Positions 23,907-63,899 of a stretch of 64,000 nucleotides of DNA are shown one piece after another. The notes under the pieces were generated by a model, which searched no databases, was not told the DNA's origin, and saw nothing but the letters and a program-made list of their open reading frames with translations. Within the stretch, counting starts at the first letter, position 1, and the number at the start of each line of letters is the position of its first letter. Made by a program: the position numbers and the translations under genes. Source of the DNA: an uncultured cyanobacterium (GTDB lineage: Bacteria > Cyanobacteriota > Cyanobacteriia > Phormidesmidales > Phormidesmidaceae); assembly GCA_963793265.1 (NCBI GenBank), contig CAWBZI010000006.1, forward strand, positions 192,001 to 256,000, read 5' to 3'.

Positions 23907-24701
23907 CTACCAAAGATCGACGCGAGGGCCACCCCGATAAGTCCATCTAGCCGGTGACCCAGGACGCAAATCTAAGTGAACAAAGCCGCTGCCCACAGCT
24001 AGCCCGCCTCGGGGATGGTAGCTTTTGAGCTTGTAAAAGACATCTACCAAGTCCAAACCTTCTACCCAAAAGTCCACAGCATCTCCATACATATGTCTGG
24101 AGTCGCGCGCGCCGCCCACATAGCGGTTACTAACGGGGTCGCGGTAGCCAGAGGTAATTCTGATAGGCCGATTGCCCAAGAAAGCGCGCACTTCATCCAT
24201 GTACTTAGCAAGCCTGACGATACGCTGCGTCACGGTAGCACTGACAGGAATGCGCGAGCCGCCTTTTGTAAATTCGGCCCAGGTAAAGTTAGAGACACTT
24301 GGCTCAAAGTAGATCGGCTCGTAAATGCCCACAGGTCGGCTAATGCCTGGAATCGAAATTGTCGGCCCAAAGTCCTGCACTTTTTGCGGCTTAGGAATAT
24401 CAGGCTCAGGGGGATCTTGTTTAGGGTTATTGTCAGGCTCAGTGCCTTCAACTTTGGCGTGTAGCCCGTATAAAAACCAGCGAATGCCCTGAGAGCCCGC
24501 CATCGGTTTTTCTAGCTGAACAAACACATGATCGTCTGCTTCGCTATTTTTTTCACCTTCGTAAGGAAGATGATCGACAATCTCTAATGTGGTGCCCGCT
24601 TTAACCGTTACAAGCTGCTCGGGTATTTTTTTGTCCTTAAGCTTATTGGCCTGAGTAGGCAGCGCTTTTAGGAATGTATCGGTGGTAATGACGACCTTCA
24701 T
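23907..24701 (-). CDS. Peptidase M15A (D-Ala-D-Ala carboxypeptidase-type) protein
   Basis: NFTW.E.T, ITSGYR.P..N..VGGA..SRHM.GDAVD, GFVHLDLR. Confidence 0.88.
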   Translation of the reverse strand: MKVVITTDTFLKALPTQANKLKDKKIPEQLVTVKAGTTLEIVDHLPYEGEKNSEADDHVFVQLEKPMAGSQGIRWFLYGLHAKVEGTEPDNNPKQDPPEPDIPKPQKVQDFGPTISIPGISRPVGIYEPIYFEPSVSNFTWAEFTKGGSRIPVSATVTQRIVRLAKYMDEVRAFLGNRPIRITSGYRDPVSNRYVGGARDSRHMYGDAVDFWVEGLDLVDVFYKLKSYHPRGGLAVGSGFVHLDLRPGSPARWTYRGGPRVDLW

Positions 24702-26236: not shown

Positions 26237-26420
26237 GCTAGAAAGTTTAGACGGTTTTGACTACTCCTCCGACTGAAGTACGGAGGATTCCCCGGCTCGC
26301 GCATGGGGGTTTCTGCTTCAAAGCAACCGCCTTCAAAAGCTAGGCTCTATCGGGTCTTACGCTCGCTCCACAGACTAACACCGCACGCCCTGCGGCTAAT
26401 ACATTTATTGCTGCATTGAC
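26237..26420 (-). ncRNA. Predicted TnpB omega/reRNA (right-end scaffold plus flanking guide); 5' boundary uncertain
   Basis: Inferred from established TnpB biology. The right-end motif GAAGCAGAAAC...GGGAATCC...hairpin...TCAA is followed by the flank AACCGTCTAAACTTTCTAGC. Confidence 0.55.
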
Positions 26421-27612
26421 ATCCCTATCATGCTGACTACCGCAACTAGGACAAACCCATTCACGGATACTCAACGGCAGCTTTTCAACCGCGTGACCGC
26501 AAGAATTACAGCGCTTGGAGCTAGGGAACCAGCGGTCAATCTTGACCAGCTTGCGCCCGTACCATTCGCACTTATATTCGAGCTGCCTTACTAACTCACC
26601 CCAGCTAGCATCACTGATAGCCTGAGCGAGCGTATGGTTTTTCACCATGTTCTTCACAGCCAAGTCCTCGACGGCAATCAGTTGGTTTTCCCTGACCAAT
26701 CGAGTCGTCAGCTTGTGAAGCCTATCTTTTCGAGCATCGGCAATCTCAGCATGGACGCTCGCAACGCGCACTCTTGCTTTGTGCCGATTGTTAGAGCCTT
26801 TTACTTTGCGGCTAAGCGCCTTGTGCACTTTCTTCAGCTTGCGATACTTAGTCTTATACCCTTTCGGGTTTGCGACCTTTTCGCCGTCACTGAGCGTCAG
26901 CAGTGCGCTGATACCCAAGTCAACGCCTACCTGTTTTTCAACAGGCGGCAATGGCTCAATGTCAACGTCTACCAGCAGCGAGAGCGTCCATCTACCCGCA
27001 GGCGAAAGCTTCACCGTTACCGTAGACGGCGCAGCGCCAGCAGGCAGCAATCGGCTCCACCGAACCGGCAGCGGCGTAGCGCACTTAGCCAAAAACACTT
27101 GGCCCTCTGTGTACTTGAATGCCGACTTGGTGAACTCAGCGCTGCCGCCATGCCGCTTCTTTTTGAAGTTCGGATACTCAGCCCGCCCTGCCCAGAAGTT
27201 GCTAAACGCTTTTTGCAAATGGCGTAAGCCTTGCTGCAAAGGAACGCAGCTCACTTCATTCAAGAAGCTCAGCGGCTTTTCCTTCTTCCAACTTGTGAGC
27301 ATCGCAGAGCTTTCTTTGTACCCAATACGCTTTTGCCTCTCGTACCATGCTCTCGTCCTTTCGGCCAACGCTTTGTTATAGACCAAACGAGTGCAGCCCA
27401 ACGTTCTACGAAGCAAGCTTTCTTGCTCAGCAGTCGGATAAAAGCGGTACTTGAAGGCTTTTAGGCTCATGCTCACATTATAACATTCAGATTGTGAGGG
27501 GGTTAGGCTAAGTGGCTATGCATTCTGGATGTTCGCTAATGCTCACCTGAGAGATCGGCTATCCCTCCCCGTGCTAAAAGCACCGGGTTTCTCGACTTTC
27601 TCTCAGACTCTC
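26257..27612 (-). mobile_element. IS200/IS605-family element, tnpB only (IS1341-type); left boundary approximate
   Basis: The right end on the minus strand reads ...GAAT-CCTCCGTAC TTCA GTCGGAGG-AGTAG-TCAA, ending at 26257. The left-end hairpin CCCGGTGC TTTTA GCACGGGG lies at 27567-27587. No tnpA is present. Confidence 0.85.
26340..27470 (-). CDS. tnpB: RNA-guided endonuclease TnpB
   Basis: N-terminal KAFKYRFYPT.EQ...GC.R.VYN, RuvC-I VGVDLG, RuvC-II IAVEDL, zinc finger CNSC/CPSC and RuvC-III HDRDVNAA.N. A TATAAT lies just upstream of the ATG. Confidence 0.95.
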   Translation of the reverse strand: MSLKAFKYRFYPTAEQESLLRRTLGCTRLVYNKALAERTRAWYERQKRIGYKESSAMLTSWKKEKPLSFLNEVSCVPLQQGLRHLQKAFSNFWAGRAEYPNFKKKRHGGSAEFTKSAFKYTEGQVFLAKCATPLPVRWSRLLPAGAAPSTVTVKLSPAGRWTLSLLVDVDIEPLPPVEKQVGVDLGISALLTLSDGEKVANPKGYKTKYRKLKKVHKALSRKVKGSNNRHKARVRVASVHAEIADARKDRLHKLTTRLVRENQLIAVEDLAVKNMVKNHTLAQAISDASWGELVRQLEYKCEWYGRKLVKIDRWFPSSKRCNSCGHAVEKLPLSIREWVCPSCGSQHDRDVNAAINVLAAGRAVLVCGASVRPDRA

Positions 27613-44507: not shown

Positions 44508-45767
44508 CTACAGCGTGCTGGGCAAAGACACCACGAACTCTGTACCCACACCGGGCTCGGAGTGGAAAGTCAGATGGCCGTGATGAACTTCAGTGATAAT
44601 CTCGCGAGCAACGCCAAGGCCAAGCCCTGTTCCTTTACCGACCGGCCTAGTGGTGAAAAACTGATCAAATATCTTAGTCTGAATTTCTTTGGGAATACCT
44701 GTGCCATTGTCTCGAATGCGAACAATTGCGCAGTCGTTTTCAAAAGCGGTAGAGATTGTAATCGCTGGATTGTCTCGGACGACACCTTCAGGGGGCAGGT
44801 CACAAAACTTTTCTTCTATCGCATCTATCGCATTCGCCATCAGATTCATCAACACCTGATTAAGCTGGCTAGGGTAGCATTCTATATCAGGAACGTCTCC
44901 GTACTCTTTGATAATTTGAATTTCAGGACGCGTCTCTTTTTGTTGTATCAAGCTCTGTAAAATCATCAGAATGCTCTCGATGCCATCGTGCAGGCTCGCA
45001 TACTTTCGCTCTGCTTCGTCCAAACGCGAGAATGTTCTGAGCGATTCAACAATCTTTTGAATACGACGCGTGCCCATACTCATAGAGCCTAGCAGCTTAA
45101 CGAAGTCTTCTTGAATAAATTCGAGATTGACTTCCTCAGCGAAGTCTTGAATTTCTAGAGAAGGGGCAGCGTTTTTTTCGTATAGCTGCACGAGCCCCAG
45201 CAAAGACTCTGCGTACTCTTGAGCGGGTGCCAGGTTGCCATGAATAAAGCTTACCGGGTTGTTAATTTCGTGAGCGATCCCCGCGACGAGTTGGCCCAAT
45301 GCGGCCATTTTTTCCTTCTGAACCAGGCTGGCCTGGATTCTACGCAGAGCCAAATGAGCTTTAATTCTAGCTAGGGTTTCGGCCTGATCAAAAGGCTTAG
45401 TGATGTAGTCTACTGCGCCTAAGTTAAGACCTTGAATTTTGTTGACGGTATCCGAAAGGGCCGTCATAAACAGCACTGGAATGTCTCGGGTTTTAGGATC
45501 TTTTTTGAGCTGACGGCAGGTTTCAAAGCCGTCGATGCCAGGCATCATGACATCTAGAAGAATGAGATTGGGAGAGACTTTTTGAACGTTTTTCAAAGCT
45601 TGTTCGCCGCTTTGAGCAATCACAACTCGGTAGTGACAGGTATGCAAAAAGTCGCACAGCACTTTAAGATTAACGGCGTTATCATCGACAACTAAGATAG
45701 TGTCTTGCTGAGAAAGCAGGCTTGCATCTATTCGATCAAGTTCTTTAGGCGCTACGGTTTCAGACAT
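44508..45767 (-). CDS. Hybrid receiver-histidine kinase (REC-HisKA-HATPase)
   Basis: ILVVDDN, LILLDVMMP, GAVDYITKPF, EKMA.LG.LVAGIAHEINNP, GKGTGLGL. Confidence 0.93.
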   Translation of the reverse strand: MSETVAPKELDRIDASLLSQQDTILVVDDNAVNLKVLCDFLHTCHYRVVIAQSGEQALKNVQKVSPNLILLDVMMPGIDGFETCRQLKKDPKTRDIPVLFMTALSDTVNKIQGLNLGAVDYITKPFDQAETLARIKAHLALRRIQASLVQKEKMAALGQLVAGIAHEINNPVSFIHGNLAPAQEYAESLLGLVQLYEKNAAPSLEIQDFAEEVNLEFIQEDFVKLLGSMSMGTRRIQKIVESLRTFSRLDEAERKYASLHDGIESILMILQSLIQQKETRPEIQIIKEYGDVPDIECYPSQLNQVLMNLMANAIDAIEEKFCDLPPEGVVRDNPAITISTAFENDCAIVRIRDNGTGIPKEIQTKIFDQFFTTRPVGKGTGLGLGVAREIITEVHHGHLTFHSEPGVGTEFVVSLPSTL

Positions 45768-45968: not shown

Positions 45969-46769
45969 CTAATTAAGAACAGCCTGAACAGTAGACACGG
46001 CAGGCGATAAAACGTCAGTCAAACCGGCTGAGGCTAGTAGCTGGTTCCACTCAGCGGCGATCGCCTCATTGTCGGGTTCAGCCTGGCGCAGTTCATTCAG
46101 CACAATTGCTGCATCGTGCCATAGATTAGCCTGCTGATACAAAAGCCTCGCCTCCATCAGCGGCTCGGCAATGGCTAGCTGCGTTGCAAAGCCCGTGGGC
46201 ACCGACTGCTGAGCAAACCAGTCAGAGGGCGCTACCCGGCGAATACTGCCATAGACAGTCGTGTCGTTTGAGCGATCGCTCACGTTAGGAACAATAGAAA
46301 AATACCACTGATAGTTTTCGTCTGGCGTTAGGGCAGGCATATCAGGCATATCAGCGATGCCCACCGTTACAAAGCCAGCTTCTTTGCTAACCTCAAAGGT
46401 TTTCTCGTAGACTAAAGCGTCGTTGCTATCGCGCAAAACAAACTCAGCGCTATTGTTAGATGCCATCTCAGGAACGTAAAACAATAGCGTAGGATGAGAG
46501 GCGGTGGTGATACTTAAAGGGGCAGGCGTCGTGATAGCAGTTAAAGCGCCGAGCGTATTAGCAAACACAGTTTCGCTGCGAGTGCCCCCGCCTATGCGTC
46601 GGCCAGGCACGCCGTATCGCGAGTCAGAAGCGTCTTCTTTAGCGCCAAGGTTGGATTCTAGAATGGACTGAGCACGGGCAGCCGGAGCGGCTATGCCCCC
46701 GATTACAAAACTACTTAAGCCAAGCAGCAAAAACGAACGAACGAATGGTGTAGTCATCATTATCTTCAA
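45969..46769 (-). CDS. DUF928 family secreted protein
   Basis: Signal peptide, PGRRIGGGTR, T...HPT..FYVP, AEF.L.D, Y.WYF.., LW.DA...L..LR...P.N.....W..LL...GL. Confidence 0.88.
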   Translation of the reverse strand: MKIMMTTPFVRSFLLLGLSSFVIGGIAAPAARAQSILESNLGAKEDASDSRYGVPGRRIGGGTRSETVFANTLGALTAITTPAPLSITTASHPTLLFYVPEMASNNSAEFVLRDSNDALVYEKTFEVSKEAGFVTVGIADMPDMPALTPDENYQWYFSIVPNVSDRSNDTTVYGSIRRVAPSDWFAQQSVPTGFATQLAIAEPLMEARLLYQQANLWHDAAIVLNELRQAEPDNEAIAAEWNQLLASAGLTDVLSPAVSTVQAVLN

Positions 46770-47270
46770 GTTTGATTGTTGTTTATGAACAGGACTACTT
46801 AAGAATGCTGAAACCTTCCGTTAGATGCCAGATAAAACGTCCTGTGTTTGTGTGCTTATATTCTAGGAAAACTGTCCGAATTCATAAATAGAGAAGATAC
46901 CGAATCTCCAAATGCAGATAGTTGTCTCTTAAGCCGTATTGTGCATAAAGACACTGTGCTGCGTGTGGCATGAATCAACCGAAGGTTAGAGTTTTTACGC
47001 CCATAGAAAAAGAAAAGTAAGAAAGCATATTTCTCACGATTACGACGCTTTGCTACTGATAGCCTCTGCAAGCAACGAAATAGAATCTTGAGAGCGTTTA
47101 CCACATCTTTATATCTATCAGTATGTATCTAATAGAAGTGCGTTTTTTTACATACCAAACACGCAATTACTGATTGCTCTTGAACCGAGTTCGTATTATT
47201 ATCCAAAGGAATTTAAAGAATACTTAATGTTTCTTTTAATTCAACCAACTAATTTTAGAGGAGTGTACGA

Positions 47271-47465
47271 ATGAAGTCTGTTATCAGTAAGTCGCTAACG
47301 ATTTCTTTGGCAGTTGCCGCTGCGCTTGCCCTGCCTACGGCTGTCAAAGCACAGGCAGATAGCATGGTAGAGAACGAGACAGCGATCGCGACTATCGAAG
47401 AGAATATTAATACTGAAACCAACTGGTGCTTCAGGGTTCCTGGCTACGGATGGGTATGCGGATAA
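47271..47465 (+). CDS. Small secreted pre-pro-peptide with a C-terminal Cys-X9-Cys core
   Basis: RBS AGAGGAG at 47257-47263, Sec-type signal peptide (VKA|QA), and a strong terminator 40 nt downstream. Confidence 0.8.
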   Translation: MKSVISKSLTISLAVAAALALPTAVKAQADSMVENETAIATIEENINTETNWCFRVPGYGWVCG

Positions 47466-47506
47466 GTTTAGTTTCTCTGTAGCATCTGTCTTTAGATACG
47501 CATTAG

Positions 47507-47545
47507 AAAGGGCCTTAAGTTCTAGTTAGCTTAAGGCCCTTTTTT
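47507..47545 (+). terminator. Strong intrinsic terminator after the peptide gene
   Basis: 13-bp stem AAAGGGCCTTAAG/CTTAAGGCCCTTT followed by further Ts. Confidence 0.85.
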
Positions 47546-47704
47546 GCGCGCATTGAAAAGTTACAGCAAAAGGGTGTTCAGTACAGATTCATATTGGGAA
47601 AACTTGATGGATCGTAGACGTTTCATTAGTTTAGAAACGCTATCAAAAGCTGGTAGGCATAGAAATACGCATTCATCAACCGTTTCAGAGTCCTGTGAGT
47701 TTTC

Positions 47705-49951
47705 ATGTTCAAAAAGTGTTCTTTTATACTTTTTTATTGGAGCAGTTTCTACGCTTTGTGGAGCGGCCCGTCGCTATCGGTAAAAGGTGAGCCCTCCGCT
47801 ATTTATACGGACGGAACAACCCAAACAAATATCACTGGAGACTCAACCTGCCTGTCAGGGTGCACTATCTCGGGCGGCACCCGTATAGGAGACAACCTGT
47901 TTCACAGCTTCAGCGAACTCAGCATACTTGAAAATACGACGGTCACCTTTGCAGATGGCGGTGCAGCTAATATTTTTGCCCGCGTTTCTGAGAGAGCCTC
48001 TTTAGTTGACGGTACGCTAGCGGTCGCTGGAAGCACAGATGCCAACTTCTTCTTAATTAACCCTCATGGAATTGTTTTCGGCCCTAACGCGGTGCTCGCA
48101 ACAGCCGGATCCTTTGTCGCGAGCACTGCTGAGAGCATCATCTTTGCAGATGGCGCGCAATTCAGCGCCACTATTAATACACTTCCTGTACTTATAGTGA
48201 GTGCGCCTATCGGATTACAGTTTGGCTCAAACCCAGGCAGCATCACGAATCGATCGCAGATCGCTCAGGCAGGATTTTCGACTGGGCTACAGGTCAGTAG
48301 CGGACAGACGCTATCGCTAGTGGGGAGCGGCGTCTATTTAGAAGGAAGTAGTCTCACAGCGAGTAGCGGGCAAATAGCCATTGGGAGTGTCAGTGCTCAC
48401 AGCAGCGTTTCTCTGCTGTCTGATTTGACAGTAGAATACTCGGATACATCGGGCTTTGAAGATATTTACCTAACGCCCAGAGCGCTAATAGATGCTAGTG
48501 GAAACGAAGGACATATCTTTATTCGGGGTCGTAATATCGTTTCAGAAGGTGCTGCAATCGCAAACATCACCGCTGCCAACGCGACTGCTGGCTCTGTAAC
48601 ACTTGTATCCGACGAGACTATAGACTTCACCGGAGGAGGAATTTTCCTTTCTCCTGCGTTCGGTAGCGCCAGCGATGGTGCAAACCTGGTGATTTCTACT
48701 AGCGAACTTGCGTTGAAAGGCGGCGCGATCATTTCAAGCGGTACGTTTGGCGCAGGCAATGGTGGAAGCCTAGCCATTGACGCCTCAAATTCTGTTGAGC
48801 TAAGCGGCACAGGGCTGAGCTTTCCTACGCTTATAACGTCCTCTACAGAAGGCAGTGGCACGGGAGGGCAAATCACTATTGATACAAACAGGCTAGCTAT
48901 TACAGATGGCGCTCAAATACAGGCCATTGCTTATAGTCAGGGAACCGGTGGAGATATCACCATCCATGCAGATGAACGCGTTGACATCGCAGGCACTGAG
49001 GAGACAGCTTCTATTGGCACATCTATCAGTGGTATCTCAGCAGCTTCAGGTATAGAAGGTCTGCCTTTTCAGCCCACAGGATCAGGAGGCAGCATATCTA
49101 TCACGACTGACAGACTAACGATTAGCGATCGCGCTCAGGTATCGGTTAATAGCTTAGGGCAGGGGAACGCAGGAGATTTGAATGTTACGGCTCGTACTGT
49201 TCGCCTGGACAACAACGCTCAGGTCACAGCGACAGCGGCCTTTGGCAACGGCGGGAACCTTTATTTAGAGGGGTTGGAGACGCTCTTATTGCGTCGAGGA
49301 AGCGTAATTTCTACTCAAGCAGGAATTAGCGATGGGCAGGGCGATGGCGGTAATATTTTTATCAATGCAGATTTTGTAGTGACTCGTTTGCTTGAAGATA
49401 GTGACATTGTGGCTAAAGCAGCACAAGGGCGAGGCGGCAATATTACGATTGATACAAGGGGTCTGTACGGGATTAGGCAGCGGCGGGCGATCGCAAACAA
49501 TCGAACCAACGATATTGATGCCAGCTCTGAGTTCGGCATTAGCGGCACCATTGAAATAAATCAGCTCGCCGCCGCCGCAGACCTAGAGGGTGCGATACTG
49601 GCAGAACGACCTTTAGAGACAGCGACAGTCGTTAGTAAGCGATGCGATGCTACTGGCAACCGATTTGTTGTAACCGGAAGAGGCGGCGTGCCAGCTTCTC
49701 CTAATAGCTCGGTAGAGATACATTCATTTTTAGATGACTTGGGAGAGAGCTTAGAAGGCGACACGGTAGCTATAGATAGTGAGGAAACTGCTTTTGAAGA
49801 GACTGTTTCTGAGACAATAGCCTCGGTAAAAGATGGCCATTGGGCAGAAGCGACCGGTTGGGGAACGGATGCAAATGGACAGGTCACACTGTTTTCAGCA
49901 AGATCGCAGGACAGTGCGGTGTCTCACATGGCAGGGCACTGCACAGGCTAG
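47705..49951 (+). CDS. Filamentous haemagglutinin N-terminal (TPS) domain exoprotein
   Basis: ISGGT..G.NLFHSF..., NIFARV, FLINP.GI.FG.NA.L..GSF.ASTA, and Gly-rich beta-helix repeats (G.GG.I.I). The cyanobacterial C-terminus reads DI.ASS.FG..G, C...N.F.VTGRGG.P, EA.GW....G.V.L. Confidence 0.9.
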   Translation: MFKKCSFILFYWSSFYALWSGPSLSVKGEPSAIYTDGTTQTNITGDSTCLSGCTISGGTRIGDNLFHSFSELSILENTTVTFADGGAANIFARVSERASLVDGTLAVAGSTDANFFLINPHGIVFGPNAVLATAGSFVASTAESIIFADGAQFSATINTLPVLIVSAPIGLQFGSNPGSITNRSQIAQAGFSTGLQVSSGQTLSLVGSGVYLEGSSLTASSGQIAIGSVSAHSSVSLLSDLTVEYSDTSGFEDIYLTPRALIDASGNEGHIFIRGRNIVSEGAAIANITAANATAGSVTLVSDETIDFTGGGIFLSPAFGSASDGANLVISTSELALKGGAIISSGTFGAGNGGSLAIDASNSVELSGTGLSFPTLITSSTEGSGTGGQITIDTNRLAITDGAQIQAIAYSQGTGGDITIHADERVDIAGTEETASIGTSISGISAASGIEGLPFQPTGSGGSISITTDRLTISDRAQVSVNSLGQGNAGDLNVTARTVRLDNNAQVTATAAFGNGGNLYLEGLETLLLRRGSVISTQAGISDGQGDGGNIFINADFVVTRLLEDSDIVAKAAQGRGGNITIDTRGLYGIRQRRAIANNRTNDIDASSEFGISGTIEINQLAAAADLEGAILAERPLETATVVSKRCDATGNRFVVTGRGGVPASPNSSVEIHSFLDDLGESLEGDTVAIDSEETAFEETVSETIASVKDGHWAEATGWGTDANGQVTLFSARSQDSAVSHMAGHCTG

Positions 49952-52588
49952 ATGAAAAAACAGCGGCGCGTTCTCAGGCTTTTATTTGCAGCGCTTTTAG
50001 GCGTGCTGTTAGAGATGGGGAGTGGAAACTATCTTTCTATCGATGATGCCGCATCAGCACAAGCTGCTGTTCAACAAAGGCAATCTCAGCAGATGGAGAA
50101 GCAAGCGGTTGAGCAGCAAGCGGCACAGGCTAGACAGCTATATATTAACGGCCAGTTTTTGGAGGCGATCGCCCAATGGCAGGCGATCGCGCAAACGTAT
50201 GCCGCTCAGCAAAACACACTCGCTCAAGCCAGCGCCCTTAGCAACCTTTCACTGAGCTACCAGCAAATAGGCCAGTGGGATAGCGCGCGCGGGGCAATCG
50301 AGCAAAGCTTGGCGCTCATTCAGTCTACGACAAACAACAGTCAGTCTCAGAGTCAGCAGTGGGCTGTGCTAGCTCAAGCATTAATGACCCAAGGCAGACT
50401 AAAGATGTCTGTAGGACAACCTGAGCAGGCGCTAGCCATTTGGCAACAGGCTACCGAAGCCTATCAAAAGAACAACAATACTATCGGTCAAAGTCGCGCT
50501 CAAATCAACCAGGCACAGGCGCTAAGAGAGCTTGGATTTTACCGGCAGGCGCTTGAGAAGCTGACAACAGTTACGGCTACGATAGACCCACAGCCGCCCT
50601 CACTGGTAAAAGCGATCGCACTTCGCCGCTTAGGAGAAGCCCTGCGGCTCAACGGCCAACTGTCCGAGGCTCAAACAACTCTTTTACAAAGCCTCGTGAT
50701 CGCTATTCAGTTAGAGAGCCCATCAGAAACTAGCGCAACACTATCAAGCCTTGGACATACCGCACGGGCTATAGGAGAGAATGACGCTGCTGAGACTTTT
50801 TACGCTAGAGCGATCGCAGCGCTTGGGCCAAACGCCTCAGCCAGGCAAAGCGTACCGATTCAGCTCGCTCAGCTACAGCTATATGTCAAAACTCAAAAAT
50901 GGACATTGGCGACCGAATTATTGCCCGCAATTCAATCGCAGTTTGACGAACTACCGCTCAGTCGAAAGGCTATTTTCTACGCGATAAACTGGGCAAACAG
51001 CTCAATAAAAATTATTCAGGCTAAGGCTCACACAGACATCAGCGCCGCCGGGTCAAAACCGGTCGCTCAGCAGCTCAAGCAGACAATCGAGCAGGCCCGC
51101 AGGCTGTCGGATATAAGCGCTGAGTCCTATGCGCTAGGCACGCTCGGCCAGCTATACGAACAAAATCAGCAGTGGGGTGAAGCCCAAGTCCTTACGCAAA
51201 AGGCGCTGAGCCTGAGCCTTGCAGGCAATGACGCAGAAATTTCCTATCGGTGGCAGTGGCAGACGGGCAGATTATGGCAGCATTCCAACAATCCCAAACG
51301 CTCTATTCCTAACGCGTTAGAAGCCTATTCTCAGGCGGTAGCAACCCTGTCACAGCTAAGAGGCGACTTGAGCAAAGCGAACAACACCATGCAGTTTTCG
51401 TTTTCAGAAGATGTGGAGCCGGTCTATAGGGAGTTTGTGAGCCTGCTGGTGCAGACTGATGATCTGTCGCCTGACTATCAAAAGAATTTAGCGATCGCTC
51501 AAAACACCATCGAATCTCTCCGGCTTGCTGAACTCGACAACTACTTTCAAGAAGCCTGTATAGACGTGCAGCCGGTAGATATCAGCCAGGTCGATCCAAA
51601 GGCAGCTATTATCTATACGCTCGTTCTTGACGATCACCTTTCAGTCATCTTGAAACTACCCAATCAGCCCTTACAGCATTTTTCAACAGATGTAGGCGCA
51701 CATGAGGTCGGCAAGCTAGCCAAACAAATTAGACAGCAGCTTGTTATTCGCAGCCGCAGGCAGTATTTCGAGCCTGCCAAAAGGATGTATGACTGGCTAA
51801 TTGCCCCTGCTAGAGAGGCGATTGAGCGCAGTGGTGTAAAGACATTAGTATTCGTGCTAGACGGGCCGCTACAGAGCATTCCGATGGCTGCGCTTTATGA
51901 TGGCGATCGCTTCTTAATTGAAGACTACGCTGTGGGCCTCACGTCCGGGCTAAAGCTGATTAACCCTCAGCCCTGGCAGCGCTCAAACCTGAAGGCATTA
52001 ATCGTAGGACTCACCGAGAGCAGGCAGGGATTAGTGCCGCTTCCTTATGTAGCGCAAGAAGTTGAACAGATTAAGGCTAATGTTAGAAGCAACAATCTTC
52101 TTTTAAATCAGAACTTCACCTATAAAGCCCTGTCTCGAAAGCTTAAGTCTTCGCTATACCCTATTGTTCATATAGCAACGCACGGTAGGTTTGGATCTAC
52201 GCCAGAAGAAACGTACTTAGTCGCCTGGGATGAACGGATTAACGTGCGCGAGGTGAATCGGATGCTTCAGGCTAATTTGGGTAGCAGGCAAGGCATAGAG
52301 CTATTAGTGTTGAGCGCCTGTGAAACCGCTAGCGGCGACCAAAAGGCAGCATTAGGGTTAGCGGGCGTCGCTATTAAAGCAGGCGCGCGCAGTACGTTAG
52401 GATCGCTTTGGGCCATTCAGGATGAAGCGACTGCTGAATTTGCAGGGCAGTTTTATCAGCAGCTTGCCCAGCCAGAGGCTACCCGCGCAGGCGCACTGCG
52501 AAAGGCGCAACTGAAGCTGCTAAAAGACCCAGAATATAAGCATCCTATCTACTGGGCACCTTACGTTTTATTAGGAAGCTGGATGTGA
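49952..52588 (+). CDS. Secreted TPR-CHAT domain protein (caspase-like cysteine protease)
   Basis: N-terminal hydrophobic signal, TPR repeats, LAEL.N.F..AC, His-Cys dyad HIATHG / LVLSACETA, and HP.YWAPY.L.G.W. Confidence 0.92.
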
Positions 52589-55056: not shown

Positions 55057-55425
55057 CTAAAAGCCATAGTCAGAGGTGATAGAAACTGAACAGCCCGCAG
55101 CGCTCAGACAAGAGGGCATCGCAACTTTTACAACAAATGTGCCTTCGTAAGGCGCAGTCACGATGGGGAAAGAGTCGATTTGCTCGTCAGCAGCTACAAG
55201 CCTGCCGGTATCGTCATACAAGAACAAATCAAGATCTTGACAGTCTTCATTGCAAGTTGCATAAACATCTTCGCCTTGCAACAAATAGCCCGTCATGGTT
55301 GCAGATTCACTATTTCGCAGCCAGCTTGTGCGATCTTGGGCAACAGCAGCGCTGCTCATACTTGCCAGAGTCATTGCAGCAACAGCAGCACTAGCAACAG
55401 TTCGGAATTTAGCAGTTAAATACAT
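55057..55425 (-). CDS. Small secreted protein, PPC-like beta-sandwich with two Cys pairs
   Basis: Signal peptide AVA|Q; C.EDC.DLDL.LYD..G...A.D...D..P.V...G...V.V.M..C....C. Confidence 0.7.
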   Translation of the reverse strand: MYLTAKFRTVASAAVAAMTLASMSSAAVAQDRTSWLRNSESATMTGYLLQGEDVYATCNEDCQDLDLFLYDDTGRLVAADEQIDSFPIVTAPYEGTFVVKVAMPSCLSAAGCSVSITSDYGF

Positions 55426-60359: not shown

Positions 60360-63300
60360 ATGTCTAATAGCAGTTTTGGCGCTCACTCTGGCCTGGGATC
60401 TGGCCTTGATGAGATACTTATTCCAGCCATTACCAATACAGAAATATCTAGCTCACCTTTAGCAGGCAGGCTCGCTAACAACCTGAACCAGCAGGGCAAT
60501 CATCTGGTTGTAATTGATTCGGCGGTAGACAATATCGAGCAGTTGATAGCCGGGATCGACTCAGCCCGAGTTGTGGTGTTGGATAGCGATCGCAATGGCA
60601 TTGAACAGATTTCAGAAGTTCTAGCAGAATACGTCAGAGTGCCGGGAGAAAGTGATCAAACAGCCCCAGGCACAGATGATTTAACGGGGGAACCACTCGA
60701 TAGCCTGCACGTAGTCTCTCACGGCGAGCAGGGCCAGGTTCAGCTAGGCAACACAACGCTAGACACTGAGGCGATCGCGCTTTACGAAACAGAAATATCC
60801 GGCTGGGGCGAGGCCATCTCTTCAGAAGGCGACATTCTGTTCTACGGCTGTAACCTGGCGGTCGGCACCGCCGGGCTTCAGTTTGTTGATCGGCTCTCGC
60901 AGCTAACCGGGGCCGATGTTGCCGCTTCTGACGATTTGACCGGGGCAGGCGGTGACTGGGATTTAGAGGTGACCACAGGCTCTATTGAAGCGCAGGCAAT
61001 TTTAGATAGTGTGACGCAAACCTCTTACTTAGGCACCCTAGCAAGCTACAACGGCAACGAATATGTGCTGACTGACGGGCCAAAAACCTGGGAAATTGCG
61101 CAGGCTGAAGCGAGAAACATAGGCGGCAACTTAGTTACCATTAATGATGCGGCTGAAGAAGCCTGGCTAAAAGAGACGTTTGGAACAGATGAGGGCTTTT
61201 GGATAGGGTTGAGCGATCGCGTTAATGAAGGTCAGTTCACCTGGGCCAACGGTGACGCGGTGACCTACACCAACTGGTTCCCTGGCGAACCCAACGACGC
61301 AGGCGGCGCTCAAGACTACGCCCGCATGAACTTTTTGGGCAGCAAACAGTGGGACGATGCAGGCAGCGGCAGCTTTTTTACAGGCATTATTGAAATCGAG
61401 CCCGTTCCTGTCAGCGGTGAAAAAACCTACAACGGCAGCACCTACGTTTTAACCGGCGAAAAAAGCTGGGAAGCCGCTCAAGCCGAAGCCGAAGCCAAAG
61501 GCGGGAACCTAGTGACTATCAACAACGCTGCTGAAGAAGCCTGGATTCAGGAAAACTTCGGCACCAACCGAGACTTTTGGATAGGCTTTAACGACATTGA
61601 AACCGAAGGGCAGTTTGAATGGGCCAGCGGCGAAGCAGTCACCTACACCAACTGGGCACCCGGAGAACCCAACAACGGTGCAGGCTTTGGCGAACAAGAC
61701 TATGGCCGTATGAACTTTGGCGCTAATAACGAGTGGGACGACCACTTTGCCAACATCTCCCTACAGGGTCTGATCGAAATTAAGGGCGATGTTCCGCCTG
61801 ATCCCGAACCGCCAATACCTGAGCCACCTAATCCAGAGCCACCCGATCCAGAGCCGCCAACAACAAATCCAGGCAACATTTCTATTAAAACCAATCTCAT
61901 CAATATTGGAGAGAATGCGGGCAGCGCTCGAATTAATATCGTACGCACAGGCGGGCGAGACGGCGATTTGACGGTAGACTATCGCACGTTTGATGAAAGC
62001 GCTGAAGTTGGAGAAGACTACGAGGAAACGACAGGCAGCGTTGTCTTCTTTAACGGCGAAATTCAAAAGAGCGTCTCGATACCTATCATCAACGACGATG
62101 AGTCAGAGAGCAACGAACGCTTCAACTTCACGATTGACAACGTGCAGGGCGGCGCTGGACTTGCGGCCCCTCGAACCGCTCAAATTACAATCGTCGACGA
62201 CGATGGTGAGCCCCCAATTCCGAAAAGCTTTGGTGGCAATCAATACGTCCTCACTAACGGCTCAAAAAGCTGGGAAGAAGCTCAGGTCGAAGCTGCAGAG
62301 AAAGGCGGTAACCTAGTCACTATCAACAGCGCTGAAGAGGAAGCCTGGCTACAGGCGAACTACGGCATTAACGAAGACTATTGGATTGGCCTGAACGATG
62401 TCGCCACCGAAGGGCAGTTTGAGTGGGTCAGCGGCCAAGACCTTAACTACACCAACTGGGCGGCAGGAGAACCTAACAATGGCGCAGGCTTTGGCGAACA
62501 AGACTTTGTACGCATGAACTTTGGCAGCACCAACGAATGGGACGACTACACGAACACCCTCACCTTACGAGGCGTCATCGAGATTGGCGGTGACAATACG
62601 CCCGATGACAATCCCAATCCATCCAATCCTCCAAATCCACCCAATCCCACTGGAGAGCCAACTGCAACAACCGTTTACAGCGGCCTCAACCGGCCTGTTG
62701 CAATTGAATGGACGCCGGACAGCTCCAAAATGTTTATCGCTGAAAAAGGAGGCGCGGTTAAAGTCGCTGAAGACGGCAACGTGCTACCAACAGACTTTAT
62801 CAATATTGCCGATCAGGTTAATACGGCCAACGATCGCGGCCTATTAGATATTGCCATTCACCCCAATTTCCCAAGCACGCCCTACGTTTACTTGCTCTAC
62901 AGCTACGATCCGCCAGAAGCAGCAGGCAACAGCGGTCTAGCCGGGCGAGACGGCGGTGGTAACAGGGCAGGCCGACTAACCAGGGTTACAGCGGATGCGA
63001 GCAACGACTATCGCACGGCGGTGAGCGGCAGTGAAGTTGTTTTGGTCGGCAAAAACAGCACTTGGGAGAACTTTAATGGCTTTGTAGATAGCACCGTCAA
63101 CTTCGACGAGCCGCCCGCGGGTATTTTGCCAGGCGGCGGCAATTTGCAAGACTTTATGGCCGCAGACAGTAATTCTCACTCGATTGGTTCAATAGAATTT
63201 GGCAGTGACGGATTGCTCTATGCCAGCAACGGTGACGGTACTTCCTACAATCGCCCTGATCCACGCACCAAGAGGGTTCAAGACGTTGACAACCTTTCTG

Positions 63301-63899
63301 GAAAGATTCTCCGTATCGATCCGATTACAGGGCAAGGCGTGAGCAGCAATCCGTTCTACAACGGCAATCCTGATTCTAACCAGAGCAAGGTTTATCAGCT
63401 AGGATTGCGCAATCCGTTCCGCTTTGTAATGAGCCCAACGACCGGGCAGCCTGTGATTGGTGATGTGGGCTGGAAGACATGGGAAGAGATTAATACGGGC
63501 GGTGCGGGTGCGAACTTTGGCTGGCCGTACTTTGAAGGAGAGAATCAGACGGGAGAATACAACACGCTACCGTCAGCGATAGAGTTCTATGCAAGTAACC
63601 CTGATGTGACCGATCCGAGCCTGTCGCTCAACCATAGCACTGGCATTAACGCGATTATTATGGGTGACGTTTATGACGGCAATACTTACCCAGATAAATA
63701 TGATGGCGACGTTTTCTTTAATGATGTAGGGAGAGGGATTGTGAGCCACGCCAATATAGATGGCGCGGGCAATATTACGGGTGCGGAGGAGTTTATTAGA
63801 GATAGTGTGTTTGTGGTGCAGATGCGAACCGGGCCGGATGGTGACTTGTACTATGTTGATTTGAATGATGGAGAGGTGGGTAAGTGGGAGTTTGCTTAA
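60360..63899 (+). CDS. Multidomain protein: DUF4347 + three C-type lectin domains + Calx-beta + PQQ-dependent glucose/sorbosone dehydrogenase-type propeller
   Basis: DUF4347: ID..V...L, H..SHG..G...LG, GDILFYGC..A, VAASDD.TG..GDW.LE. Three copies of W..A...A...GGNLVTIN...E..W...WIG..D...EG.F.W...Y.NW..GEPN. Calx-beta: G..F..GE..K...I.I.ND...E..E.F. Propeller: DRGLL.IA.HP.F, GKILRI, GLRNPFR, WEE.N...GAN.GWP. Confidence 0.88.
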   Translation: MSNSSFGAHSGLGSGLDEILIPAITNTEISSSPLAGRLANNLNQQGNHLVVIDSAVDNIEQLIAGIDSARVVVLDSDRNGIEQISEVLAEYVRVPGESDQTAPGTDDLTGEPLDSLHVVSHGEQGQVQLGNTTLDTEAIALYETEISGWGEAISSEGDILFYGCNLAVGTAGLQFVDRLSQLTGADVAASDDLTGAGGDWDLEVTTGSIEAQAILDSVTQTSYLGTLASYNGNEYVLTDGPKTWEIAQAEARNIGGNLVTINDAAEEAWLKETFGTDEGFWIGLSDRVNEGQFTWANGDAVTYTNWFPGEPNDAGGAQDYARMNFLGSKQWDDAGSGSFFTGIIEIEPVPVSGEKTYNGSTYVLTGEKSWEAAQAEAEAKGGNLVTINNAAEEAWIQENFGTNRDFWIGFNDIETEGQFEWASGEAVTYTNWAPGEPNNGAGFGEQDYGRMNFGANNEWDDHFANISLQGLIEIKGDVPPDPEPPIPEPPNPEPPDPEPPTTNPGNISIKTNLINIGENAGSARINIVRTGGRDGDLTVDYRTFDESAEVGEDYEETTGSVVFFNGEIQKSVSIPIINDDESESNERFNFTIDNVQGGAGLAAPRTAQITIVDDDGEPPIPKSFGGNQYVLTNGSKSWEEAQVEAAEKGGNLVTINSAEEEAWLQANYGINEDYWIGLNDVATEGQFEWVSGQDLNYTNWAAGEPNNGAGFGEQDFVRMNFGSTNEWDDYTNTLTLRGVIEIGGDNTPDDNPNPSNPPNPPNPTGEPTATTVYSGLNRPVAIEWTPDSSKMFIAEKGGAVKVAEDGNVLPTDFINIADQVNTANDRGLLDIAIHPNFPSTPYVYLLYSYDPPEAAGNSGLAGRDGGGNRAGRLTRVTADASNDYRTAVSGSEVVLVGKNSTWENFNGFVDSTVNFDEPPAGILPGGGNLQDFMAADSNSHSIGSIEFGSDGLLYASNGDGTSYNRPDPRTKRVQDVDNLSGKILRIDPITGQGVSSNPFYNGNPDSNQSKVYQLGLRNPFRFVMSPTTGQPVIGDVGWKTWEEINTGGAGANFGWPYFEGENQTGEYNTLPSAIEFYASNPDVTDPSLSLNHSTGINAIIMGDVYDGNTYPDKYDGDVFFNDVGRGIVSHANIDGAGNITGAEEFIRDSVFVVQMRTGPDGDLYYVDLNDGEVGKWEFA

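Follow-up and report, generated by a model that had tools for sequence, protein, structure and literature searches.

What does a 64-codon gene contribute to a locus that otherwise encodes a filamentous-haemagglutinin-like exoprotein of two-partner secretion (TpsA), a caspase-like TPR-CHAT protease and a DUF928 protein? The locus lies in a 64,000-nt stretch (the window) of contig CAWBZI010000006.1, from the assembly GCA_963793265.1 of an uncultured cyanobacterium of the Phormidesmidaceae. An earlier note on this DNA had described DUF928 as divergent from a small Cys-loop gene that is followed by TpsA and TPR-CHAT, and had proposed that these genes form a protease signalling system outside the cytoplasm. 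Using the list of open reading frames (ORFs) together with Pfam and NCBIfam family scans, we confirmed all four genes as real and their layout as described; coordinates below are positions within the whole stretch. Judged from the sequence, the small gene likely encodes a conserved, exported peptide with two Cys residues, and the tight partner of this peptide is likely TpsA. The peptide may be an outside signal for the neighbouring, unstudied protease-and-sensor pathway.

The peptide gene and its family

The 64-codon gene (47271-47465, + strand) has no Pfam or NCBIfam family above cut-off, and homologues were found. A ribosome-binding site, AGAGGAG (47257-47263, +), lies 7 nt before the ATG, and its GGAG is kept in relatives. 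RNA folding predicted an intrinsic-terminator-like hairpin with a U-run 3' of the gene (47507-47545, +). The fold of 47466-47560 had a free energy of -33.6 kcal/mol and a z score of -4.92 (0/200 shuffles); a consensus terminator scan limited to loops of 8 nt did not list the hairpin. In 7/7 close pairs of relatives, most changes in the gene fell on third codon positions. Given the ribosome site, the terminator-like stem-loop, the homologues and the third-position bias, we regard the gene as more than a chance ORF.

The product consists of a predicted signal (residues 1-27), an acidic variable spacer (28-52) and a two-Cys loop (53-63), and pairwise identity within the family was 0.57, 0.25 and 0.55 over these parts, respectively. 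In the family alignment, the core is Cys53-x9-Cys63 with a PG[YFW]G turn (47427-47459, +), a predicted disulfide hairpin. Cys53 is invariant and all 34 aligned members have the two terminal Cys, with the nine-residue spacing in 20. With a net charge of -5, the mature peptide is acidic. There is no conserved Arg ahead of the core, and Arg55 within the core occurs in 12/34 members only. The description as a pre-pro-peptide in the earlier note was borne out for the signal-like part and the variable spacer, while a processing site was not demonstrated. We infer that the peptide is exported by the Sec pathway and that its disulfide closes.

Full-length homologues were found in 22 of 172 related genomes, namely 19/45 of the same genus and 3/5 of one other genus. 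One close homologue bears the label Phormidesmis sp. at its source, so this group is Phormidesmis-like. Outside these two genera, a profile search of 401 class genomes returned no full-length member among the 15 candidates scored per genome, a depth at which distant members can be missed. In a representative library, 22 of the 26 matches were family members; the other four were rejected as long unrelated proteins, two from their sequence and two by their length. Among at least 119 loci from a DNA-pattern scan of genome contigs, three belonged to family members already known, and none showed a further peptide with a signal. Weak matches to the signal alone were rejected (L018 and seven inspected loci, L041-L047), and look-alikes in the Atlas all scored below 0.9. 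P0031, whose signal diverges, is a distant member of the family, and further relatives were not found. When we considered a ribosomally synthesised and post-translationally modified peptide or a double-glycine bacteriocin, no Pfam or NCBIfam match reached the cut-off, and no modifying enzyme or exporter of the peptidase-ABC (ATP-binding cassette) type was adjacent.

Across 21 peptide loci, the neighbours are DUF928, TpsA, CHAT, glutathione S-transferase and aldo-keto reductase genes. TpsA and TPR-CHAT lie downstream of the peptide gene in 19/21, the other two ending at contig edges, and DUF928 is divergent from it in 20/21, the exception being a contig end. On this point the earlier note is supported: the peptide is a real and conserved member of this locus. 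Against a single peptide gene, this genome has nine DUF928 genes, several CHAT paralogues and eight TpsA-like ORFs besides this one.

TpsA and its small partners in other cyanobacteria

TpsA (47705-49951, +) carries a secretion domain of the two-partner type at its N-terminus (PF05860, E 6e-39, 135 bits against a cut-off of 33.5; TIGR01901), and its PDB relatives, 2odl, EtpA and HxuA, match over this domain only. A repeat-like Gly pattern is conserved in a 57-sequence alignment, and the body may form a predicted beta-helix. Cys647 and Cys746 bracket the C-terminal domain; C647, G660, G661, P666, E715, W719 and C746 are each kept in at least 90% of the 57 sequences, and an Arg-Gly-Gly stretch in the tail is conserved. 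TpsB is absent next to TpsA, and two ShlB-family genes lie on other contigs of the genome. Up to 29 TpsA genes were found in single genomes. Contact-dependent inhibition of the CdiA/CdiI kind does not fit: TpsA has 748 residues, its C-terminal motifs are conserved and not swapped, and the downstream gene encodes TPR-CHAT.

The closest TpsAs in other families often have a small Cys-tailed gene just upstream. In a tree of 135 TpsA N-terminal regions, with labels assigned by eye beforehand, this TpsA groups with 13 from other families (FastTree support 0.972). We used a fixed rule, a co-oriented Cys-tailed ORF upstream, on the best TpsA matches to one clade member in another cyanobacterial family (f32), which is Nostocaceae-like by inference from a Nostoc plasmid match. 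The rule was positive at 22/28 f32 loci versus 5/105 other TpsAs, and about three of these five look spurious. Controls gave 2/28 on the reverse strand, 0-4/28 in ten shuffles and 12/300 for random genes of this genome; in a separate sample, only 3/10 clade members were positive. The counts leave out L464 and L470 (short upstream sequence) from 30 f32 loci and, from 120 TpsA loci, two without a called TpsA ORF and three with short upstream sequence. Conversely, of 72 matches to an f32 peptide profile, 65 have a co-oriented TpsA no more than 3.2 kb downstream (43/50 outside the profile-building set).

In the f32 peptides, a helical leader is conserved, while the cores are diverse and often have several Cys; these peptides match no NCBIfam family, and members sit in unnamed Atlas clusters. 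Two tandem peptide-TpsA pairs at L511 differ in their cores. By eye, the core is of an acidic two-Cys hairpin type at the top five TpsAs matching a clade member, which come from five genera, and same-genus TpsAs with other core types rank lower. TPR-CHAT and DUF928 flank the pair in 1/20 f32 loci, of which about 19 kb each was read. This one locus, L515, repeats the layout seen here, plus a CHASE2 gene, with a different peptide family; among the 20 loci, L523 has DUF928 and CHASE2 at the pair and L520 a distant long CHAT protein. As this position ahead of TpsA holds different small Cys peptides in other cyanobacteria, we regard the peptide as the likely own partner of the filament. We take peptide and TpsA as the minimal unit, and CHAT, DUF928 and CHASE2 as a module that lies beside the pair here but in f32 mostly at other places.

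Several other small genes were seen beside TpsAs. At L445, L450, L451, L454, L457, L458 and L469, in-frame fusions join a Cys core either to a TpsA signal with its N-terminus or to a twin-arginine signal, and these f32 hybrids probably arose by tandem duplication and deletion. PEP-CTERM-like genes adjoin other TpsA genes of this genome (G000 C7:230907-232916 and C2:155950-157824) and are also found beside TpsA at L326, L332, L336, L381, L422 and L425, which suggests a second class of exported partners paired with TpsA. A double-glycine-leader peptide is divergent from one clade TpsA (L300:2698-2880), and an exported SH3-containing protein with a Cys tail is encoded upstream of another (L293:778-1212).

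TPR-CHAT, DUF928 and the CHASE2 gene of relatives

The ATG of the TPR-CHAT gene (49952-52588, +; PF12770, E 1e-61, with TPR repeats) starts at 49952, directly after the TpsA stop ending at 49951, in agreement with the earlier note. The product has the CHAT domain with a His-Cys dyad following the TPRs that marks this clan CD group. Also as reported, the dyad is intact: His744 (52181-52183, +) and Cys790 (52319-52321, +) are present in 23/23 aligned sequences (this one and 22 orthologues). Only one alignment column tracks the presence of the peptide, and that column follows clade. No sequence relative was found in the PDB at E 1e-5. An N-terminal hydrophobic stretch, a putative export or anchor segment, is present in 27/27.

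All four products had been said to carry export signals. Judged by hydropathy only, as the best 13-mer score, this was clear for DUF928, the peptide and CHAT (2.2-2.5), whereas TpsA was weak in this copy (1.26) and exceeded 1.8 in 14/25 orthologues.

DUF928 (45969-46769, - strand; PF06051, E 4e-41) has a signal-like N-terminus, a low-confidence and likely disordered stretch, and an Ig-like beta-sandwich followed by a helical domain. Its structure model has a mean predicted local distance difference test score of 83.8, falling to about 50 for residues 1-60. A 49-sequence alignment showed a P-G-R-R-x-x-G-G-x-R motif at residues 55-64 (46578-46607, -), with P55 and R64 invariant and G56, R57, R58, G61 and G62 at 90% or above. 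Lying in the low-confidence segment, this Arg motif is a candidate CHAT cleavage site. Upstream, a conserved non-coding motif (46858-46906) has near-invariant columns in 12 aligned intergenic regions, two peptide-less loci included, and is probably the DUF928 promoter or operator. Further short conserved words occur upstream of the peptide gene. DUF928 matches were found in 116/151 sampled cyanobacterial genomes.

A CHASE2-GGDEF-EAL-like gene converges on DUF928 in 12/21 peptide loci; it is absent from six, and three could not be called. The call in relatives stands for full-length similarity to a CHASE2-GGDEF-EAL protein of this genome, which has 12 CHASE2 matches. The gene is absent from the locus in this genome, and this is why the earlier note missed such a partner. 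At other loci, the CHASE2 domain was found on kinases and other outputs. Other DUF928-CHASE2 modules lie at G000 C1:215127-221668, C5:349586-357004 and C1:604226-608680, one of which has a TpsA-CHAT fusion.

A REC-histidine kinase gene (44508-45767, -; family scans) had been listed just downstream of DUF928. It does adjoin DUF928 here, yet it does so in 0/18 relative loci with sequence at that place and is not a conserved part of the locus. An apparent inversion of about 22 kb (window 23,907-45,900) separates this genome from 4/4 relatives tested. In these relatives, DUF928 is followed by the block that starts at 23,907 here, in reversed orientation here, so that M15 peptidase, short-chain dehydrogenase/reductase, FKBP-like and GTPase genes normally come next. 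Five relatives had no close full-length orthologue of the kinase, the best full-length relatives being 44-45% identical. The kinase, brought beside DUF928 by the inversion and without close orthologues in those five relatives, is a neighbour and no partner. With regard to peptide quorum sensing, export of the peptide is predicted from hydropathy, and this kinase is not conserved.

Other genes of the window include an IS605-family TnpB gene within the inverted block (26340-27476), a 122-aa protein with a signal-like start and no Pfam family (55057-55425) that adjoins the aldo-keto reductase gene and is conserved in relatives, and a 1179-aa protein (60360-63899) with DUF4347, three C-type lectin, Calx-beta and sugar-dehydrogenase-like domains.

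Readings of the locus and known systems

We tentatively favour a reading, possible but somewhat short of probable, in which the peptide is an outside ligand of TpsA and the relay runs inward via TPR-CHAT and DUF928 to CHASE2. The gene linkage is observed, and every later step is proposed. The peptide would be exported, close its disulfide and bind surface TpsA as a cognate outside partner, TpsA itself being exported by one of the two TpsB genes elsewhere in the genome. The disulfide tail of TpsA would stay in the periplasm, as in HMW1 and HxuA, which are anchored through a periplasmic C-terminal disulfide loop (PMC5422565). There the TPR region would bind the tail and CHAT would be activated; periplasmic TPR-CHAT domains are thought to require allosteric activation (PMC11506125). 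Activated CHAT would cut DUF928 after Arg in the Arg motif, the specificity described for the cyanobacterial CHAT protease HetF (PMC9457339). Cut DUF928 would then modulate CHASE2, in trans in this genome, and change cyclic di-GMP. In Sinorhizobium meliloti, CHASE2 cyclases answer a proteinaceous signal via an outer-membrane receptor (PMC7529298). In this reading, the cell would make the peptide as an optional input that the core of the pathway does not require. In favour are the place of the peptide ahead of TpsA in relatives, its tie to one TpsA clade seen in both directions, the unlike cores of the tandem pairs at L511, the layout of L515 and the f32 cores fused to TpsA-derived or twin-arginine signals. 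We place the peptide outside, as a ligand of TpsA, because of the TpsA Cys pair, the DUF928 Arg motif, the HetF specificity, the proposed CHAT activation and the lack of a conserved Arg ahead of the peptide core.

A broader version of this is doubtful: one cyanobacterial TpsA clade would be surface receptors for their own lineage-specific Cys-loop peptides, signalling by a periplasmic caspase-like cascade of TpsA tail, TPR-CHAT, DUF928 as tethered ligand, and CHASE2. If true, it would be an undescribed cyanobacterial peptide-pheromone or kin-recognition system, and it would name the input of the CHASE2 sensors.

Several observations weigh against the peptide as a TpsA ligand and signal. Four genomes keep DUF928-TpsA-CHAT intact, with the dyad, and have no peptide ORF; they form one nested clade (Shimodaira-Hasegawa-like approximate likelihood ratio 95, quick CHAT tree), which points to a single loss, and the peptide is dispensable. 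At a fifth locus without the peptide, TpsA carries a frameshift. Of two genomes that retain the peptide, one has a frameshift in TpsA and the other a shortened TpsA (L244, L246). The peptide core is semi-conserved (0.55), whereas a kin code might be hypervariable. This genome lacks a CHASE2-GGDEF-EAL gene at the locus, its best match (47%) being a paralogue. Most f32 peptides are without an evident export signal, and homology between the f32 profile and this peptide family was undetected (hhalign probability 0.3%), so that the two may do different jobs. Counts over relatives also overstate the certainty, since related genomes are not independent.

The same peptide-TpsA tie would follow if the peptide served TpsA structurally or in assembly, as a cap, plug, chaperone or cargo exported along with it, and were no signal. 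Most f32 loci have the pair but lack TPR-CHAT and DUF928 beside it, and the strong ribosome site and separate terminator suggest that peptide is made in excess. However, TpsA stays intact after peptide loss in the four genomes above, and cores differ greatly between families and tandem copies; we consider such a role unlikely. It is rather improbable that the peptide is a co-regulated output, such as a secreted antagonist or a metal-binding mini-protein, without contact with TpsA. Its gene has its own terminator, f32 peptides are often signal-less with several Cys, and PEP-CTERM-like genes occupy the same upstream slot at about 7/118 other TpsA loci (by eye). Yet the link is confined to one TpsA clade and is found whether one starts from TpsA or from the peptide. 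Hairpin antimicrobials are typically cationic, unlike the acidic mature peptide.

In the version of the earlier note, TPR-CHAT would mature the peptide directly, or the peptide would activate or inhibit TPR-CHAT. The genes for peptide, TpsA and CHAT point the same way, and the block of all three is missing, with DUF928 and CHASE2 kept, in at least three genomes (L269-L271), L243 being a likely further joint loss. Protease inhibitors commonly take a disulfide-loop form. However, a single deletion across the adjacent genes could also explain the joint loss. No conserved Arg precedes the peptide core, f32 peptides travel with TpsA mostly without CHAT or DUF928, the dyad is kept after peptide loss, and the single CHAT column that tracks the peptide follows clade. 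Protease signalling outside the cytoplasm fits the anatomy, while the direct link of the peptide to CHAT or DUF928 is unsupported and quite improbable. We give even less chance to inside-out control, in which CHASE2-GGDEF-EAL gates CHAT via DUF928 and so releases TpsA, the peptide being incidental. The CHASE2-GGDEF-EAL gene beside DUF928 in 12/21 loci, the conserved Arg-Gly-Gly of the TpsA tail and a precedent in LapG, which cleaves CdrA off the cell surface (PMC4694147), are consistent with it; but it leaves the peptide-TpsA link unexplained, CHASE2 sits on kinases and other outputs elsewhere, and 6/21 loci and the window have no CHASE2 gene.

A short, synthesisable peptide tied to one TpsA clade offers a handle on filament binding, CHAT activation and CHASE2 input. 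If the peptide is indeed an outside ligand of TpsA, peptide sensing would join adhesion and toxin delivery among the roles of two-partner secretion. DUF928 was barely present in the literature searched, and a search with subscription papers and supplements outside its reach found no published account of DUF928-CHAT pairing or of a peptide-TpsA-CHAT-CHASE2 system.

Among known systems, the DUF928 model resembles MtxA of magnetotactic bacteria (PDB 4z29) in its beta-sandwich and helical domain (Z 9.6, root-mean-square deviation 4.3, 151 aligned residues, 11% identity). 4z29 was the only top match spanning both domains, and unrelated Ig-like folds had a tied Z on just the sandwich; no function can be carried over. 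HetF, which acts on PatU3 in Anabaena PCC 7120, is likewise a cyanobacterial CHAT protease that cleaves after Arg, but its TPRs are periplasmic with a membrane segment before CHAT, whereas here a single N-terminal export segment precedes TPR-CHAT in its entirety (PMC9457339). DdvA/DdvS of Myxococcus xanthus shares a periplasmic TPR-CHAT, the His-Cys dyad and a proposed allosteric activation. There, DdvA is a membrane anti-sigma factor, and in the available text the extracytoplasmic function sigma factor on that side, and TpsA and the peptide on this, are without correspondence (PMC11506125).

The NsrA system of S. meliloti, with CyaK, CyaD1 and CyaD2, shares with our proposal an outside protein signal, an outer-membrane-associated receptor and an inner-membrane CHASE2 enzyme; there the signal is host-made and the receptor is no TpsA, and the available part of the paper does not mention CHAT or DUF928 (PMC7529298). 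CdrA/LapG/LapD of Pseudomonas shares a surface adhesin, a periplasmic protease and, in relatives of this locus, a GGDEF-EAL membrane protein (PMC4694147). Here, in contrast, the protease is a caspase-like TPR-CHAT, the sensor domain in relatives is CHASE2-like, and DUF928 and the peptide come in addition, so the locus does not belong to that group. With HMW1, HxuA and filamentous haemagglutinin, the locus shares the secretion domain, the conserved C-terminal Cys pair and perhaps the predicted beta-helix (PMC5422565). Here, TpsB is missing from the locus, a TPR-CHAT gene is coupled to TpsA and a Cys-loop peptide gene stands in front, for which the available text of that review names no counterpart. 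The locus is a real and apparently unpublished variant of two-partner secretion.

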